Shown piece after piece: positions 51,584 through 58,275 of a DNA stretch of 64,000 bases (positions are counted from its first letter, which is position 1; each line of letters begins with the position of its first letter). The DNA is from Gemmatimonadales bacterium. GTDB lineage: Bacteria; Gemmatimonadota; Gemmatimonadetes; Gemmatimonadales; GWC2-71-9. Below the pieces are notes generated by a model, which did no database searches, was not told the origin of the DNA, and saw only the letters and a program-made list of their open reading frames with translations. The position numbers and the translations under genes were made by a program. Location of the stretch: the NCBI GenBank assembly GCA_039794085.1, contig JBDIWC010000001.1:96678-160677 (forward strand), written 5' to 3'.

Positions 51584-52075
51584 TCAGGAGTCGCGCGGGG
51601 CCGGTGCATCCTGAACCGGGACGGGGGAACGATCAGTGGTTGCGTGATGCTCCACCATCCGCCACCGACCCTGCATCCGGCGCCACTGCGTGACGTACCG
51701 CCCCACGTCGTGGAGAACCAGACCTCCGGGTGGGGCAAACTCCATCAGGTATCGCCCGCGTTCCAGGGCCAGGGTATCCTGGATGTCGAGGGATTCCATG
51801 GTCAGTTCCACCCGCGCCCCCAGGCTCTCCAATCCGCGCACCCGTTTGCGGATCTCCTCGGTGCCGCTGATCGTCGGGTTGGCGGGCGCGATCCACCGTC
51901 CATCGGGGGCGAAGAGCGCAGCCACGGAATCGGCCTGGCCGGTGCTGTACCAGTAGCTGAACCACCCCGACGAGCGGACGATCGCCTCCCGGTCCTTTCC
52001 GGATCCACAGGCACTGGCCAGGAGCACCAGGGCGACAATCCCTTTCAGGTACGTGAGCCCGGGACCATCCCGCAT
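51584..52075 (-). CDS. NTF2-like (DUF4440/SnoaL) lipoprotein
   Basis: Lipobox ASAC; VAALFAPD, ALERGRY, GRYVTQWRR..G.WR. Confidence 0.8.
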   Translation of the reverse strand: MRDGPGLTYLKGIVALVLLASACGSGKDREAIVRSSGWFSYWYSTGQADSVAALFAPDGRWIAPANPTISGTEEIRKRVRGLESLGARVELTMESLDIQDTLALERGRYLMEFAPPGGLVLHDVGRYVTQWRRMQGRWRMVEHHATTDRSPVPVQDAPAPRDS

Positions 52076-52482
52076 CAGCGGCGCACCGTCACAGCCCGGC
52101 CCGCCGGATCGAGCAGGGCAAAGGTGGCCCCGTCGGCCACCTGCTCGATCACCACGCTGTAGTCCCCGGCCGCACCGACATCAGGCACTCGAATCCGGGC
52201 GATATCCCCGTTCACCAGGGTTCCGGTCACGACCGCCCGGAACTGGGCGCCCCCGGCCACCAGAGTCCCCTCCGCGGTGAGCGCTCCCCCGGGCGTGATT
52301 CCCTCCACGGGCCCCCCGCTGATTCGGAGCAGCACCGCTCCATCCGTGGAGCCGCTCCCGGACAGAACCAGGGTGATCTCACCGGCAAGGGCCGGTGGAG
52401 GGCCGGTCCGGGTGTCATCACCCCCGCAGCCGGTCACACTGGCAATCAGGCCCAGGGCCATCAACCGCCACGCGGATCTCAT
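52075..52482 (-). CDS. Small all-beta lipoprotein, cohesin-like (hypothesis)
   Basis: Lipobox VTGC; alternating beta-strand pattern; ATGA overlap with the M6 protease. Confidence 0.7.
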   Translation of the reverse strand: MRSAWRLMALGLIASVTGCGGDDTRTGPPPALAGEITLVLSGSGSTDGAVLLRISGGPVEGITPGGALTAEGTLVAGGAQFRAVVTGTLVNGDIARIRVPDVGAAGDYSVVIEQVADGATFALLDPAGRAVTVRR

Positions 52483-54755
52483 CGGCCCCCTCGCGGAGGA
52501 TCGCTTGGGGGGGGGACCGTGGGGGTCGCAGTCACGCCTCGTCTCACCAGAGCCAGGTAGTCACCCAGGTCAAACGCACCATTGCGATTGCCCAGGAGGT
52601 CGAGGAAGGCACTTTGGGCCTCGGAGAGCGTGGAGCCCCCGAGCACGGCCTGGAGGGCATCGGCCGCTGTGACAACCACCGTGGGCGTGAACGTCGCCAC
52701 CAGGTCGAATGGACGGCTCACGGCCAGGGTCAGGACCGGCGCGATCGCGGTCGTGTCGCCGGTCCAGCCCGCAAAGGTCATCCCCGCCGCCGGACTGGCC
52801 GTCAGGGTGAGGGGTGCACCCTCCGGAAGAAAGGACCCCGATTGCAGGGAGCCCTCGGCACTGGCGACCACAGCACCGCTGCCCAGCCCGGAGAGCGTGA
52901 CCTTGACCCGATGATCGAGGGCGAAACGGGCCAGCACCGTGTCGGGCGGACCACTGCGCGAGATCACGGTGTGGTTCCGAGGTTGTCCGTTGGTCCATTC
53001 GAGAAACCGGGCGATGCTCCGCCCATTGTTGAAGGACACGATCGAATCGGACTCGAGAGTCACCGTGTCGCCCGGAGGGACGAGGTCTTCCAGAAGGAAC
53101 CGGCTCAGCCCGTTCACCCGGACTGTCGGGCCGTTCCGCTCCACTCCGAATCGGGAAGGGGCACGGCGGGTGAACCGGAACCGTATGTCCTGACCGGGGA
53201 GGCGTTCGATCTGATCCACAATGAAGCCGAGAAACCGGCCATCATCCCCGCGAGCGGAAGGGAGCGTGGTGAGGGTGAGCCGATTGCGGCCGCCGAGAAA
53301 CGGATAGCTGTCCCCCTGGTCCCCGCGATTGACGCGCCGCCGGAGATCGTCCCGGCCGTCGGCCTGGAGCAGGACCAGACCATTCGGCTGGGCCGAGTTG
53401 ATCGTGGCGAGCCGGCTGGAGACCACGTTCTGATTCACGCGCCAGAGAAGAAGTCCCGGGGCCTTGGCCTTGGCGAAGGCTGGATTCATTTGTGCGGTGT
53501 CGCTCTGGACAGCCTGACGATTCTCGATCAGCAGGTGCGTCGAGGGATCCTCGGTGGACTCGGCGAGGAAGATGGTGTCGGTGAGTTGTCTCGGGCCCGT
53601 AATGATCACCCGATCCTCGGTCAGAGGGGCCACCGTGATCCAGCCGAGCTGCATCAGGGACCACGCTTCGTAGGTTGCGGGGCTGTGGGGAAGCGCAAAG
53701 TTGCCGCTCCCCATCAATCCCCATTCACCGATGCCGCTCGTGGCCAGCGTCAGATCGTACAGATCGGGCAATCCAAAGGCGTGCCCCGTTTCGTGCGCTA
53801 TCGTCCCGACCGGGAGGATGTCCTCGCCGCTGCAGGCGGTATCTCCACCGAGCTGGCTCTGAATCGTGTAGTCCTGGATCTCGAGGAAGGCGCCCGGGAT
53901 GGCCTGGCCCGCGCTGTTCCGGCGAGGCGTTCGGGTCACATAGGCGGGCCCGCCGGTCAAGCCGGACAGCACCCAGCGGTGGGACCAGATTCCCGTCGCC
54001 CCCTGTCGACACTCCCCCCCGACGTTCGGCTGGAGGAAGGTCACGAAGTCCACGCGTCCGTCGTCATCCCCGGAATTGGGAATGCCGTCGGGTCCGTCGT
54101 TGTCGAACCGGTTCCAGAGGGTGTCACCCCCGGGGGCATTGGAGAGCTTGTCCAGAACCGACGTGAGCAGGAGTCCGAGCCGGTTGACGGGACGCACCGG
54201 GCAGGTCGTTCCTCCGGTCACGCTGATACCGTTGCACCCATCCTCATAGAAGAAAGCGGTGCTGTCCGCCGTGACGGGTGAAAAGACGCTGCCATTGAGG
54301 GTGATTCTCCCTCCCGAGAGTTCCTCGTAGAAGGTCTTCAACGAGTAGGCGCGCCCCATCGGTTGCGGGGAAAAGAGGACGTCGGTGAACTGGGCGGGAG
54401 TGAACCGGACCGACACGTCAGAGTAGCCGATCAGGACGACCGGCACGAAGAAGGGTCCCGCAACCACCGTGGCCGAGCCGACCAGCGGGACGACCCTCTG
54501 AAAAAGGAGCCGGGGATCGGTGTTGAGACTCGGATAGTCCCGCGCGCGCAGCAGGGATTCCCGGCGGAGACGTACCGCCTCGGCCCGGCGCCGCCACGCA
54601 CCATCGGGCCCGAAATCGAGTCCGGGTATCTCATGGCGAACGGGCTCCTGCCCCTCCAGGGGAGCCACGGCGAATGGGGCAGTCCCCCCGACTGCCATGG
54701 CGACAACGAGGGCAACCACGGTGTACCACGGGGAGAACCGGAAGCGTCTGGGCAT
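52479..54755 (-). CDS. M6 family (immune inhibitor A-like) metalloprotease with C-terminal beta-repeat and dockerin-like tail
   Basis: Start 54755 with signal peptide; DNDGPDG.PNSGDDDG.VD; IWSHRW; HETGHAFGLPDLYD; LIENRQ; F.GWTGD. Confidence 0.9.
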   Translation of the reverse strand: MPRRFRFSPWYTVVALVVAMAVGGTAPFAVAPLEGQEPVRHEIPGLDFGPDGAWRRRAEAVRLRRESLLRARDYPSLNTDPRLLFQRVVPLVGSATVVAGPFFVPVVLIGYSDVSVRFTPAQFTDVLFSPQPMGRAYSLKTFYEELSGGRITLNGSVFSPVTADSTAFFYEDGCNGISVTGGTTCPVRPVNRLGLLLTSVLDKLSNAPGGDTLWNRFDNDGPDGIPNSGDDDGRVDFVTFLQPNVGGECRQGATGIWSHRWVLSGLTGGPAYVTRTPRRNSAGQAIPGAFLEIQDYTIQSQLGGDTACSGEDILPVGTIAHETGHAFGLPDLYDLTLATSGIGEWGLMGSGNFALPHSPATYEAWSLMQLGWITVAPLTEDRVIITGPRQLTDTIFLAESTEDPSTHLLIENRQAVQSDTAQMNPAFAKAKAPGLLLWRVNQNVVSSRLATINSAQPNGLVLLQADGRDDLRRRVNRGDQGDSYPFLGGRNRLTLTTLPSARGDDGRFLGFIVDQIERLPGQDIRFRFTRRAPSRFGVERNGPTVRVNGLSRFLLEDLVPPGDTVTLESDSIVSFNNGRSIARFLEWTNGQPRNHTVISRSGPPDTVLARFALDHRVKVTLSGLGSGAVVASAEGSLQSGSFLPEGAPLTLTASPAAGMTFAGWTGDTTAIAPVLTLAVSRPFDLVATFTPTVVVTAADALQAVLGGSTLSEAQSAFLDLLGNRNGAFDLGDYLALVRRGVTATPTVPPPSDPPRGGR

Positions 54756-54977: not shown

Positions 54978-56186
54978 GTGGCTCAGATCACTGCTCAAGA
55001 CGTGGCACTGTTCGCCAAGTGCTCGCAGTTCACCCGCGCCGATGAGATCAAGACGGCGGGCCTCTATCCATTTTTCAAGCCCATCACGGAATCCGAGGAC
55101 ACCACCGCAGTGGTGATCGAGGGGACCAAGCGGATCATGATGGGCTCGAACAACTACCTTGGACTGACCCATCACCCCAAGGTGATAGAGGCTGCCGAGG
55201 CGGCGCTTCGCCGGTACGGGTCGGGCTGCACCGGGAGCCGGTTCATGAACGGCACGCTCGATCTGCACGAGCGCCTGGAACGGGCCCTTGCCGAGTTCCT
55301 CGGCAAGGAGGACTGCATGGTCTTCTCCACCGGGTATTCGGCCAACTTGGGCATGATCTCCGGTCTGGTGGGCCGCGGCGAAGCGGTCTACCTCGACAAG
55401 CTGGACCATGCCTGCATCGTGGATGGCGCGAAACTCTCCTACGGGGAAACCTACCGCTTCAACCATGGGGACCTCGACGGCCTCCGGCGCCTGCTCGACC
55501 GGAAAAGTTCGGCCCAGGGCGCCTTGGTGGTGGTCGACGGGGTCTACTCGATGGAGGGCGACATCGCGGACCTTCCCGAGCTGTCGCGGATCTGTCACCG
55601 GTACGGGGCGGCCCTGGCCGTGGACGACGCCCACTCGCTCGGAGTGCTCGGCCCGCGCGGCGACGGGACCGCGGCCCATTTCGGTCTCCAGGACGAGGTC
55701 GACATCATCGCCGGTACTTTCTCCAAATCCCTGGCCTCGGTGGGTGGTTTCGTGGCCGCACGGGAGCGGGTGATCAACTTCCTCCGGCACCATAGCCGTC
55801 CCTTCATCTTCACCGCGTCGCTCCCCCCCTCGAGCACGGCGGGCGTGTTGGCGGCGCTCCAGGTCCTCCAGGCGGAGCCGGAACGACGGGTTCGCCTCTG
55901 GGAAAACACCCGGCGCCTGCACGAGGGATTCCGGAGCCTGGGCTTCGATATCGGTCCGACGGAAACCCCGATCGTCCCGGTCGTCATCGGTCCCCTCGAC
56001 ACCACCATGCTGATGTGGCGGAAGGTTTTCGATGCCGGCGTGTTCACTAACCCGGTGGTGCCACCGGCGGTGCCAGCCACGCAATGCCGGCTCCGGACCT
56101 CCCTGATGGCCACCCACACGACCGACCAGATCGATCAGGTGCTGGAGGTCTTCGGTCGGATCGGTCGGGAGCTGGGGGTCATCTGA
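54978..56186 (+). CDS. spt: Alpha-oxoamine synthase, probable serine palmitoyltransferase
   Basis: GSNNYLGL, GCTGSRFMNGT, DDAHSLG, GTFSKS (PLP Lys); operon context. Confidence 0.8.
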   Translation: MAQITAQDVALFAKCSQFTRADEIKTAGLYPFFKPITESEDTTAVVIEGTKRIMMGSNNYLGLTHHPKVIEAAEAALRRYGSGCTGSRFMNGTLDLHERLERALAEFLGKEDCMVFSTGYSANLGMISGLVGRGEAVYLDKLDHACIVDGAKLSYGETYRFNHGDLDGLRRLLDRKSSAQGALVVVDGVYSMEGDIADLPELSRICHRYGAALAVDDAHSLGVLGPRGDGTAAHFGLQDEVDIIAGTFSKSLASVGGFVAARERVINFLRHHSRPFIFTASLPPSSTAGVLAALQVLQAEPERRVRLWENTRRLHEGFRSLGFDIGPTETPIVPVVIGPLDTTMLMWRKVFDAGVFTNPVVPPAVPATQCRLRTSLMATHTTDQIDQVLEVFGRIGRELGVI

Positions 56187-57310
56187 GCGACGGAATAACT
56201 GTGCGCCCGGTCCGCACGGGCAGAGATCTGCGGCGCTTCATCGACCTTCCATACCGGTTGCATCGGGGGGACCCCATGTGGGTCCCCCCGTTGCGTCGGG
56301 ACGTGAAGGCCCTGCTCTCGCGCACCCGGAACCCCTTCTTCGACCACGCCGAGGCCGAGTACTTTCTCGCCCTGCGGGAGGGGAAGGTCGTGGGCCGTGT
56401 CGCAGGCATCGTCAACCGGCTGCATAACGAGACCCACAACGATCGGACCGGCTTTTTCGGGTTCTTCGAAACCGAGCAGGACCCGGCGATCGCCCAGGCC
56501 CTGACCGACACCGCTGCGGCCTGGGTGCGGGAGCGGGGCATGACTGTCCTCCGCGGCCCGGCGTCTTTTTCGGTCAATGACGAGTGCGGCCTGCTGGTGG
56601 ATGGTTTCGACACACCGCCCACCGTCATGATGGCGCACAATCCCCCCTGGTACGAGTCCCTTCTCGTCTCGGCGGGATTTTCCCCCGTGAAGAATCTCCT
56701 CGTTTTCCAGGGGGACCATCGAAGCGGAGTCCCCGAGCGACTGACCCGGGCCATCGACCTCATCAAGAAACGACAGGGTCTCACTGTTCGCCCGATCAAC
56801 ATGAAACGGTTTGCCCACGAGGTGGAGACGATCAAGGAGCTCTACAACCGCGCCTGGGAGCGCAACTGGGGCTTCGTTCCGATGACGGATCGCGAGATCG
56901 ACCACGCGGCCTCCCGGTTCCGGCCGATCGTGGTTCCCGAACTGGCCCCGATCGTCGAGGTGGATGGACGCCCCATCGCCTTCGGGTTGGCCCTCCCGGA
57001 TGTGAATGTGCCGCTGCGATCGAATCGGTCGGGGTACTTTCTCCCCGCCCTGCCGAAACTCCTGTGGTCACTCCGGCGTGGAGGAAACTCCCGGATTCGA
57101 ATCCTCCTTCTGGGCATCACCCCCGAGTACCGGGGCAAGGGAATCGATGCCGTCCTCTACTACCATCTGTGGAAGGACAGCACCGACGTGGGGTTCTTCT
57201 GGGGTGAGGCAGGATGGATCCTGGAGGACAATCCGGCGATTCGCGCCGGGATGGAGAAGATCGGGTTCTCGGTCTACAAAACCTACCGGCTCTACGATCG
57301 GGACACATGA
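56183..57310 (+). CDS. GNAT-fold protein, probable bacterial ceramide synthase (start uncertain: CTG 56183 or GTG 56201)
   Basis: WVPPL, VGRVA, GFFGFFE, LRGP, MMAHNPPWY, NWGFVPMT, WILEDN, YKTYRLY. Confidence 0.75.
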   Translation: MSDGITVRPVRTGRDLRRFIDLPYRLHRGDPMWVPPLRRDVKALLSRTRNPFFDHAEAEYFLALREGKVVGRVAGIVNRLHNETHNDRTGFFGFFETEQDPAIAQALTDTAAAWVRERGMTVLRGPASFSVNDECGLLVDGFDTPPTVMMAHNPPWYESLLVSAGFSPVKNLLVFQGDHRSGVPERLTRAIDLIKKRQGLTVRPINMKRFAHEVETIKELYNRAWERNWGFVPMTDREIDHAASRFRPIVVPELAPIVEVDGRPIAFGLALPDVNVPLRSNRSGYFLPALPKLLWSLRRGGNSRIRILLLGITPEYRGKGIDAVLYYHLWKDSTDVGFFWGEAGWILEDNPAIRAGMEKIGFSVYKTYRLYDRDT

Positions 57311-58275
57311 AGGCGCTCGTCACCGGAGCGAGCGGGTTTGTCGGATCCCACCTGGTGGAGACCCTGCAGAGGGCGGGGTGGTCGGTGACCGTGCTGGTGC
57401 GCACCCCGGGGAAGCTCGAGAGGATCGGCATTCACGGGGTGCACTCCGTCGTGGGCGACCTCGCGAACCTGGAAACCCTGGGCCACGCCTGCCAGGGTCA
57501 GGATGTGGTGTTCCATGTGGCCGGCCTGGTGGCTGCCCGCACTCCCGAGGAGTACCTTGACGTCAACCGGGACGGCACCGCCCGCCTGGTGAGGGCGGCG
57601 GAATCGGCCGGGATCGGACGCCTGGTGCTGGTCTCTTCCCTTGCCGCCGCAGGCCCGAGCCAGGTCGGCGCTCCCCGCACCGAGGATCTCGTCCCCGCGC
57701 CCGTGACCGCCTACGGCCGAAGCAAGCTTGCCGCGGAGGACGTGGTGCGACGCTCCTCCCTCCCCTGGACCATCCTGCGGCCGCCCACCATCTACGGTCC
57801 GAGGGACCGGGAACTCCTCACCGCCTTCAAGGCGGCCCGCCTCGGGATCGCTCCCGTGTTCGGCGATGGCAGCCAGGAACTCTCGGTGATCCATGCCACC
57901 GATCTCGCCGAGGCCCTTCTCGCCTCGGCCACCGCCCCCGGGGCCGTCGGCCTCACCGCCTTCGCCTCCCATCCCGACGTCATGACCAGCGCTTCTCTGC
58001 TCCACACGATCGGCAGGAGTCTGGGACGAACCCCCTGGATCCTTCCCATCCCCCGCCCTGTCGGGACCCTGCTCCTCCGCATCACCGGAGCCGTCGCGGC
58101 GCTTGCGGGACGGGCCACGATCCTGAACCCCGACAAGGCCAACGAATTCTTTCAACCGGCTTGGACCTGCTCCCCCGACCGACTGGCCAAGGCGACGGGG
58201 TGGCGCGCTCGTATCGCCGTGGCCGAGGGGATCCCCGCAACGACTGCGTGGTACCGATCCTCCGGGTGGCTCTGA
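57307..58275 (+). CDS. Extended SDR (NAD-dependent epimerase/dehydratase), candidate ceramide reductase
   Basis: TGASGFVG, YGRSK, RPPTIYGP; ATGA overlap. Confidence 0.8.
   Translation: MKALVTGASGFVGSHLVETLQRAGWSVTVLVRTPGKLERIGIHGVHSVVGDLANLETLGHACQGQDVVFHVAGLVAARTPEEYLDVNRDGTARLVRAAESAGIGRLVLVSSLAAAGPSQVGAPRTEDLVPAPVTAYGRSKLAAEDVVRRSSLPWTILRPPTIYGPRDRELLTAFKAARLGIAPVFGDGSQELSVIHATDLAEALLASATAPGAVGLTAFASHPDVMTSASLLHTIGRSLGRTPWILPIPRPVGTLLLRITGAVAALAGRATILNPDKANEFFQPAWTCSPDRLAKATGWRARIAVAEGIPATTAWYRSSGWL

Follow-up and report, generated by a model that had tools for sequence, protein, structure and literature searches.

How is an exported protease held at the cell when its gene overlaps that of a small lipoprotein? 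The question is raised by a 64,000-nucleotide stretch of DNA (the window) from the Gemmatimonadales bacterium assembly GCA_039794085.1, contig JBDIWC010000001.1, in which we studied three minus-strand genes encoding an M6 zinc metalloprotease with a dockerin-like C-terminal tail, a lipoprotein with a predicted cohesin-like fold, and an NTF2-like predicted lipoprotein. An earlier note on this DNA had proposed that the tail and the adjacent lipoprotein form a cellulosome-style protease anchoring system. We find that tail and lipoprotein genes occur together across the phylum, that residues in the two proteins co-vary, and that the pair likely serves to tether exported proteins to a membrane in one-to-one fashion. 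The open reading frames lie where the earlier note placed them, and their features are as follows.

52479..54755, minus strand: gene for the M6 zinc metalloprotease, 758 amino acids, with signal, catalytic domain, beta-rich linker domains and dockerin-like tail
53694..54407, minus strand: Peptidase_M6 catalytic domain, residues 117-354 (PF05547, E 5.8e-18)
53763-53795, minus strand: zinc motif HExxH...D, protease residues 321-331 (motif position)
52683..52871, minus strand: Flg_new_2 (InlB B-repeat-like) spacer, residues 629-691, immediately N-terminal to the tail (PF18998, E 1.7e-7)
52533..52673, minus strand: dockerin-like tail, residues 695-741, three helices, loop 1 truncated and loop 2 kept (from model and conservation)
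52560..52604, minus strand: predicted lone calcium loop L-D-x-x-G-N-x-N-G-x-x-D-x-G-D, residues 718-732
52575-52577, minus strand: Ala727 of the tail, in the column co-varying with the lipoprotein
52479..52482, minus strand: ATGA, the protease stop overlapping the lipoprotein start
52075..52482, minus strand: lipoprotein gene, 135 amino acids, one small cohesin-like beta-sandwich
52426-52428, minus strand: lipobox Cys19 of the lipoprotein, after a hydrophobic stretch
52141-52143, minus strand: Gln114 of the lipoprotein, in the column co-varying with the tail
51584..52075, minus strand: predicted SnoaL/DUF4440 (NTF2-like) lipoprotein, 163 amino acids (PF13577, E 8e-10)

The protease begins with a hydrophobic signal peptide, judged by eye, and scores above the family cut-offs of two M6 profiles (PF05547, 65.6 bits against 22; TIGR03296, 123.9 bits against 110.8), which together with the intact zinc motif places it in the M6 family with predicted activity. 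The tail quoted in the earlier note (residues 695-739, 52539-52673) is present in the DNA as given, and the ATGA overlap can be read there directly. The same four-base overlap is kept in 130 of the 166 separate lipoprotein genes of relatives that have an ATG start, and translational coupling of protease and lipoprotein is likely.

We followed the pair through 61 related genomes, 201 genomes of the phylum (overlapping with the 61) and 80 metagenome loci for which the tail motif was the sole selection criterion; the genomes are related to one another, and pairing counts are not independent events. The source genome itself has a single tail and a single lipoprotein of this kind. Elsewhere in the 61 relatives, a tail gene lies directly upstream of the lipoprotein match in 40 of 41 cases, the 41st fitting neither profile; the match at locus L070 was discarded as a false lipoprotein. 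Conversely, tail places adjoin a lipoprotein gene in 58 of 59 cases, the 59th ending at a contig edge. Because 41 of these 59 places served as seeds, the 18 held out are counted separately: 17 are paired, with the lipoprotein directly downstream in 10 and directly upstream in 7 (two of the seven with weak scores), and one lies at a contig edge. Across the phylum sample, tails occur in 104 genomes, lipoproteins in 98 and both in 97. Of the 151 tail places found there 150 are listed; 135 of these either adjoin a lipoprotein domain or share its reading frame (nine assignments rest on weaker profile matches), and six are cut by contig ends. Among the metagenome loci the lipoprotein is directly downstream in 69, four lack enough room, and six belong to a short-tail type whose lipoprotein is expected upstream, outside the fetched DNA. 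The pairing of tail and lipoprotein is far beyond chance, and the co-occurrence on which the earlier note's proposal depended is borne out.

Separate downstream genes carry a Cys at the lipobox position in 191 of 199 cases. In these 191 genes (L002-L337) an acidic residue falls within four positions after the Cys in 161, and Gly or Ser predominates at residue +2; these positions are possibly a sorting signal. A single-protein scan of genome contigs gave one relative whose lipoprotein is 93% identical to that of the window, in a Gemmatimonadales record. A second arrangement, with the lipoprotein gene upstream of the M6 protease, is found at L071, L072, L074-L078, L148 and L149, where the protease tails stop with the last helix or a little beyond it and carry Arg at helix position 14. 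At L156 and L157 an S8 subtilase has a BACON stalk and a tail, and the lipoprotein gene lies 3-5 kb upstream with other DNA between.

The tail is not confined to proteases. A search for further proteins bearing the GNxNGxxDxGD tail, as the earlier note had suggested, gave 1,394 matching clusters at 50% identity, and no match in the viral contigs searched. Besides M6 enzymes, tails are carried by PPC-plus-propeller, Vps10-like propeller, RCC1, S8 subtilase and CARDB proteins and by adhesin-like proteins with Calx-beta, fn3, cadherin, LRR and PKD domains. The protease anchoring proposed earlier is therefore correct in that the tail sits on an M6 protease, but too narrow. This range bears on the idea that the lipoprotein is a protease inhibitor or a folding chaperone for the M6 domain that shields the periplasm. 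Small inhibitors encoded next to secreted metalloproteases are known, and M6 proteases are the majority of tail cargoes within the order of the window; the lipoprotein nevertheless also follows many proteins with no detected protease domain, and the lone complete M6 gene without a tail (L132, n = 1) lies in a genome with no lipoprotein match, four other tail-less M6 matches being cut by contig ends. We regard a role as inhibitor or chaperone as highly improbable; judged by gene content, the lipoprotein partner follows the tail, not the protease. Among the cargo genes, the M6 gene of L135 (G003:C16) is frameshifted into frames of 1,014 and 471 codons, the second with the tail, which is a real break or an assembly error, and L058:2925-5516 and L073:2806-5295 encode related beta-rich secreted proteins of about 830-860 amino acids with a tail and no Pfam match.

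The predicted structure of the tail is that of a reduced dockerin. Its model (predicted local distance difference test, pLDDT, 83.8) has helices at 5-12, 20-29 and 38-47. A Foldseek search returned dockerin 1ohz_B as top match (probability 0.98, root-mean-square deviation (rmsd) 1.6 over 45 columns, E 0.29), and rows 1-9 of a VIA-align search are all dockerins, with 2ccl_B at Z 5.4 and rmsd 1.8 Å over 47 residues. The model reproduces the three-helix dockerin arrangement, in which two antiparallel binding helices are joined by a third. The duplicated calcium-binding repeats of dockerins are absent, only the second loop being present; of loop 1 no more than the end is left, and its last Asp is present in 63 of 150 representatives.

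The remaining loop, D-x-x-G-N-x-N-G-x-x-D-x-G-D, is near-invariant in the best 150 of the 1,394 clusters, in which conservation was counted: the first Asp, the Gly, the Asn and the last Asp are present in 150/150, the middle Asp in 148/150 and the second Asn in 143/150. Canonical dockerin calcium ligands occupy positions N, N+2, N+4, N+6 and N+11, according to PMC12270676. Three of these are occupied in the same 150 clusters (N+2 by Asn in 150, N+4 by Asn in 143 and N+11 by Asp in 150), whereas position N is mostly Leu, Gln, Ile or Val and the invariant Asp719 sits two residues N-terminal (150/150), so that the canonical spacing is not kept. The tail is thus predicted to be a reduced dockerin with one non-canonical calcium loop: the dockerin-like fold and the single loop put forward in the earlier note stand, but the description of that loop as intact does not.

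A separate search with the lipoprotein led to the other half of the same known binding pair. Its model (pLDDT 92) gave only cohesin-containing entries at Foldseek ranks 1-10 (E 0.02-0.06), and in a VIA-align comparison with 48,161 chains rows 1-17 are all cohesins (Z 9.4-6.2). The best match, 2w1n, reaches Z 9.4 with rmsd 2.3 over 93 residues, and the first non-cohesin Z 6.2. The predicted structure is a jelly-roll beta-sandwich of cohesin topology, in agreement with the beta-sandwich foreseen by the earlier note; several alignments begin 15-25 residues into the target, and the first cohesin strand is therefore probably missing. An Atlas search gave unnamed Gemmatimonadota clusters, the nearest named cluster being cohesin at 0.84, which is a lead only.

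Co-variation between the two proteins points to direct contact. From 238 pairs we removed 11 (9 too gapped, 2 duplicates), leaving 227 unique pairs with an effective number of 201; alignment A2 omits the L062 lipoprotein, which has an aberrant N-terminus. Direct-coupling analysis placed tail column 36 (Ala727, loop position 7) and lipoprotein column 90 (Gln114) first at z 11.4, followed by 738/121 (z 8.0), 730/84 (z 6.8) and then 734/121, 734/87 and 733/86. Maxima under the null were 4.7-5.8 for global shuffles (6 runs) and 8.74 for shuffles within clusters of relatives (37 runs). Arg or Lys in the tail pairs with Asp or Glu in the lipoprotein (table 58/11/24/134), a pattern seen in all four subsets. 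On a tree built without the tested columns, independent pairs changed the same way in 5.8 cases against 0.1 the opposite way (median p 0.031, an optimistic value because the top pair was picked after the scan), and three control column pairs were flat. When the data were split, the 8 strongest column pairs from 164 genome pairs and the 8 strongest from 63 metagenome pairs had three in common; 11 of the 63 are more than 80% identical to a genome pair.

The coupled tail residues occupy loop and helix positions 7, 10, 13, 14 and 18, and dockerin positions 14 and 18 we take to have a role in cohesin recognition too. The coupled lipoprotein residues are Leu51, Val84, Thr86, Gly87, Gln114, Phe121 and Leu123, which, from strand order and intra-domain couplings, would lie on a four-stranded binding face. 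Positions 10 and 11 recognise cohesin in dockerins, as stated in PMC12270676.

In complex modelling, tail and lipoprotein scored 0.52 against 0.02 for the best of three controls, and the runs share at least 96% of contacts with a partner pLDDT of at least 79; the score may derive from likeness to solved cohesin-dockerin complexes. The mark for this score was reached by 116 of 157 solved pairs and 2 of 215 mismatched pairs. Since those reaching it at 0.60 or under comprise only 18 of the 157 solved pairs and both mismatches, support from the complex is weak. This weakness would suit a gene cassette without direct binding, in which the tail would act as a cap stabilised by calcium and the target of the lipoprotein would be something else, such as a glycan: chitin- and carbohydrate-binding sandwiches do appear lower in the lipoprotein fold list (Z 5-6), and residues shared by kin can mimic co-variation. 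The co-variation observed, however, exceeds relatedness-matched shuffles and is charge-complementary, the pair persists through gene-order change, cargo swap and fusion, and independent searches arrived at the two folds of a known binding pair. We consider the absence of binding very unlikely. None of the outcomes held to tell against the earlier proposal arose: the lipoprotein has a predicted cohesin-like fold, the two genes co-occur, and complex prediction gives weak support.

We therefore think it probable that the tail docks on its cognate lipoprotein and that the lipid anchor keeps exported cargo tethered to a membrane. Translational coupling would supply both chains in about equal amounts, each exported by its own signal peptide, and the lipoprotein would be lipidated at Cys19. 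Calcium would order the remaining loop, with the invariant Asp719 replacing the missing first ligand, and the loop and last helix would then dock through the coupled positions on the four-stranded face of the sandwich. A single docking orientation is probable because the first repeat is broken. Residue pair 727/114 may form part of a pairing code, Arg or Lys going with Asp or Glu and otherwise mostly neutral residues with Gln.

The source genome encodes LolA and two secretins, compatible with either a periplasmic or a surface location. The same proteins would serve a transient escort, in which the lipoprotein accompanies its cargo through the periplasm, or as far as a secretion machine, before releasing it as a free protein; one-to-one coupling and co-variation fit such an escort equally well. 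Solved cohesin-dockerin pairs are high-affinity assembly modules, according to PMC12270676, and many cargoes have long immunoglobulin-like (Ig-like) stalks between working domain and tail, as expected of tethered proteins. Both speak against release, and we judge escort unlikely. As to where a tethered cargo would reside, the adhesin-like cargo of relatives favours the cell surface. PorV, a marker of type IX secretion, had no match in the source genome and did match in a control genome; SprA_N and Por_Secre_tail matched in no genome, control included, and are uninformative.

Several results weigh against docking. At the level of sequence, PF00404 matched none of 41 tails and PF00963 none of 40 lipoproteins, and neither matched in the source genome; when hhalign compared the tail and lipoprotein profiles with those of canonical dockerins and cohesins from the same order, the probabilities were 0.2 and 1.7, respectively; and Pfam, NCBIfam and PDB sequence searches returned nothing relevant for either. 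No Foldseek match to tail or lipoprotein reached E 0.001, and Z 5.4 is modest for a small helical domain. In the co-variation, beyond the optimism of the p-values already noted, the next pairs tested (47x97, 39x60) did not reach significance when counted over independent tree pairs (median p 0.5, 0.375, 1), the leading pair ranks sixth in the 63 metagenome pairs alone, and the binding face of the lipoprotein was assigned from strand pattern. Pairing also has exceptions: among the 150 phylum tails, five have the lipoprotein 6-10 kb upstream, one has a lipoprotein fragment 1.8 kb downstream and three are without their own intact lipoprotein, and one metagenome tail has room downstream yet no lipoprotein.

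How far does docking of this kind resemble known systems? The type I pairs of Clostridium thermocellum (1OHZ, 2CCL; OlpA/OlpC 3UL4, 4DH2) share with the predicted structures a three-helix dockerin and a cohesin sandwich, as well as the use of a C-terminal plug on varied cargo. OlpA and OlpC are reportedly single-cohesin cell anchors. Unlike type I pairs, the pair described here has one calcium loop with its first Asp shifted, a smaller sandwich (about 100 aligned residues against 135-155) and no Pfam or profile match, and it combines a lipid anchor and a diderm host with a dedicated, translationally coupled partner gene per cargo. The non-cellulosomal cohesins of Clostridium perfringens (2W1N, 2VO8, 2O4E) and Archaeoglobus fulgidus (2XDH) are the best structural matches to the lipoprotein (Z 8.1-9.4) and likewise have no tie to cellulose breakdown; the C. 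perfringens cohesins, by their entry titles, are modules inside glycoside hydrolases, whereas ours is a stand-alone lipoprotein at 11-13% identity. Natural single-loop dockerins that bind cohesins exist in the truncated group 2 of Ruminococcus flavefaciens, which, according to PMC12270676, have one binding helix plus an extra helix, bind as two copies and keep canonical ligands. The tail here instead retains three helices, lacks the front part of loop 1 and has a shifted first ligand. Canonical two-repeat dockerins occur in 12 and cohesins in 10 of the 61 related genomes, and none was found in the source genome. Clusters of these canonical modules (L136, L137) come from the same order as the window, yet form a separate family with no profile match to tail or lipoprotein; L136 (G044:C4:173000-183000) and L137 (G032:C1:446000-461500), both Gemmatimonadales, have several cohesin-dockerin tandems in one protein. 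The pair works like a non-cellulosomal cohesin-dockerin anchor, yet lies outside PF00404 and PF00963 by sequence and repeat structure.

The comparison with cellulosomes proposed earlier is not supported. None of 241 open reading frames has more than one lipoprotein-type domain, and we therefore do not regard this as a cellulosome-like scaffold; cargo genes as a rule come with a lipoprotein gene of their own. A search for longer proteins (7,992 candidates scored) gave one fused single-domain protein only, which is weak evidence of absence, and no cellulase or hemicellulase catalytic family was detected among 53 cargo proteins scanned.

In two other families, at 24 places in 11 genomes (several of these genomes assembled in 1-3 contigs), a single reading frame encodes both the tail and the lipoprotein domain; further in-frame fusions are P0036, P0052 and P0154. 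The linker from the fused tail to the lipoprotein domain runs from an Arg-rich part through a hydrophobic stretch to a lipobox-like Cys; in several forms, a first membrane segment ahead of the Arg-rich part is weak or missing. An in-frame internal start was considered and fits only a minority, as no ATG, GTG or TTG occurs 14-40 codons before the Cys in 12 of 21 fused forms, compared with 2 of 191 separate genes. This pattern suggests that the fused gene encodes a polyprotein with an internal lipoprotein signal, a non-standard start being the alternative, and raises the question of whether the lipoprotein pathway can act on a signal that is preceded by more than 1,000 residues of the same protein. 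The fused proteins of L158-L175 (families f6 and f7; for example G222:C1:2694000-2725000) are giant and adhesin-like, with up to five copies per genome, and have a conserved Cys pair C-terminal to the tail. Locus L144:3042-4121 (G139:C3) encodes a single small lipoprotein with a cohesin-like domain followed by a tail and no other cargo, which could be self-closing or chain head to tail.

We found no published description of the Gemmatimonadota tail and lipoprotein pair in a search that covered few subscription papers, and passages of PMC11557425 and PMC12484212 do not describe such a system. Our broadest proposal is tentative and, in our estimate, has somewhat less than an even chance: that Gemmatimonadota use a portable tag and a private lipoprotein for display, a minimal dockerin-cohesin system with a charge code that places proteases and giant adhesins on the surface, and that the fused polyprotein is cut and lipidated internally, its halves rejoining non-covalently. 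If the pair does tether its cargo, two abundant unannotated families would gain a function, with the tail present in about half of the sampled phylum genomes; a sequence tag would identify exported proteins that are tethered, in a phylum that is widespread and mostly uncultured; and cohesin-dockerin chemistry would extend to lipid-anchored one-to-one pairs in the diderm envelope. Being smaller than known pairs, and possibly including natural orthogonal variants, it could be of use in protein assembly and display.

The third gene named in the earlier note, the NTF2-like lipoprotein, does follow the pair but is not a conserved member of the unit: in a neighbourhood test informative only for loci with enough downstream DNA, it was found close to the pair in no loci other than L001 and L032, both from the same genus, and we rejected it as a third component. 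On the other side of the locus, upstream of the start of the protease gene, three adjoining plus-strand genes (window 54978-58275) may encode a serine palmitoyltransferase-like aminotransferase, a GNAT protein and an NAD-dependent reductase, a combination known from bacterial ceramide synthesis.

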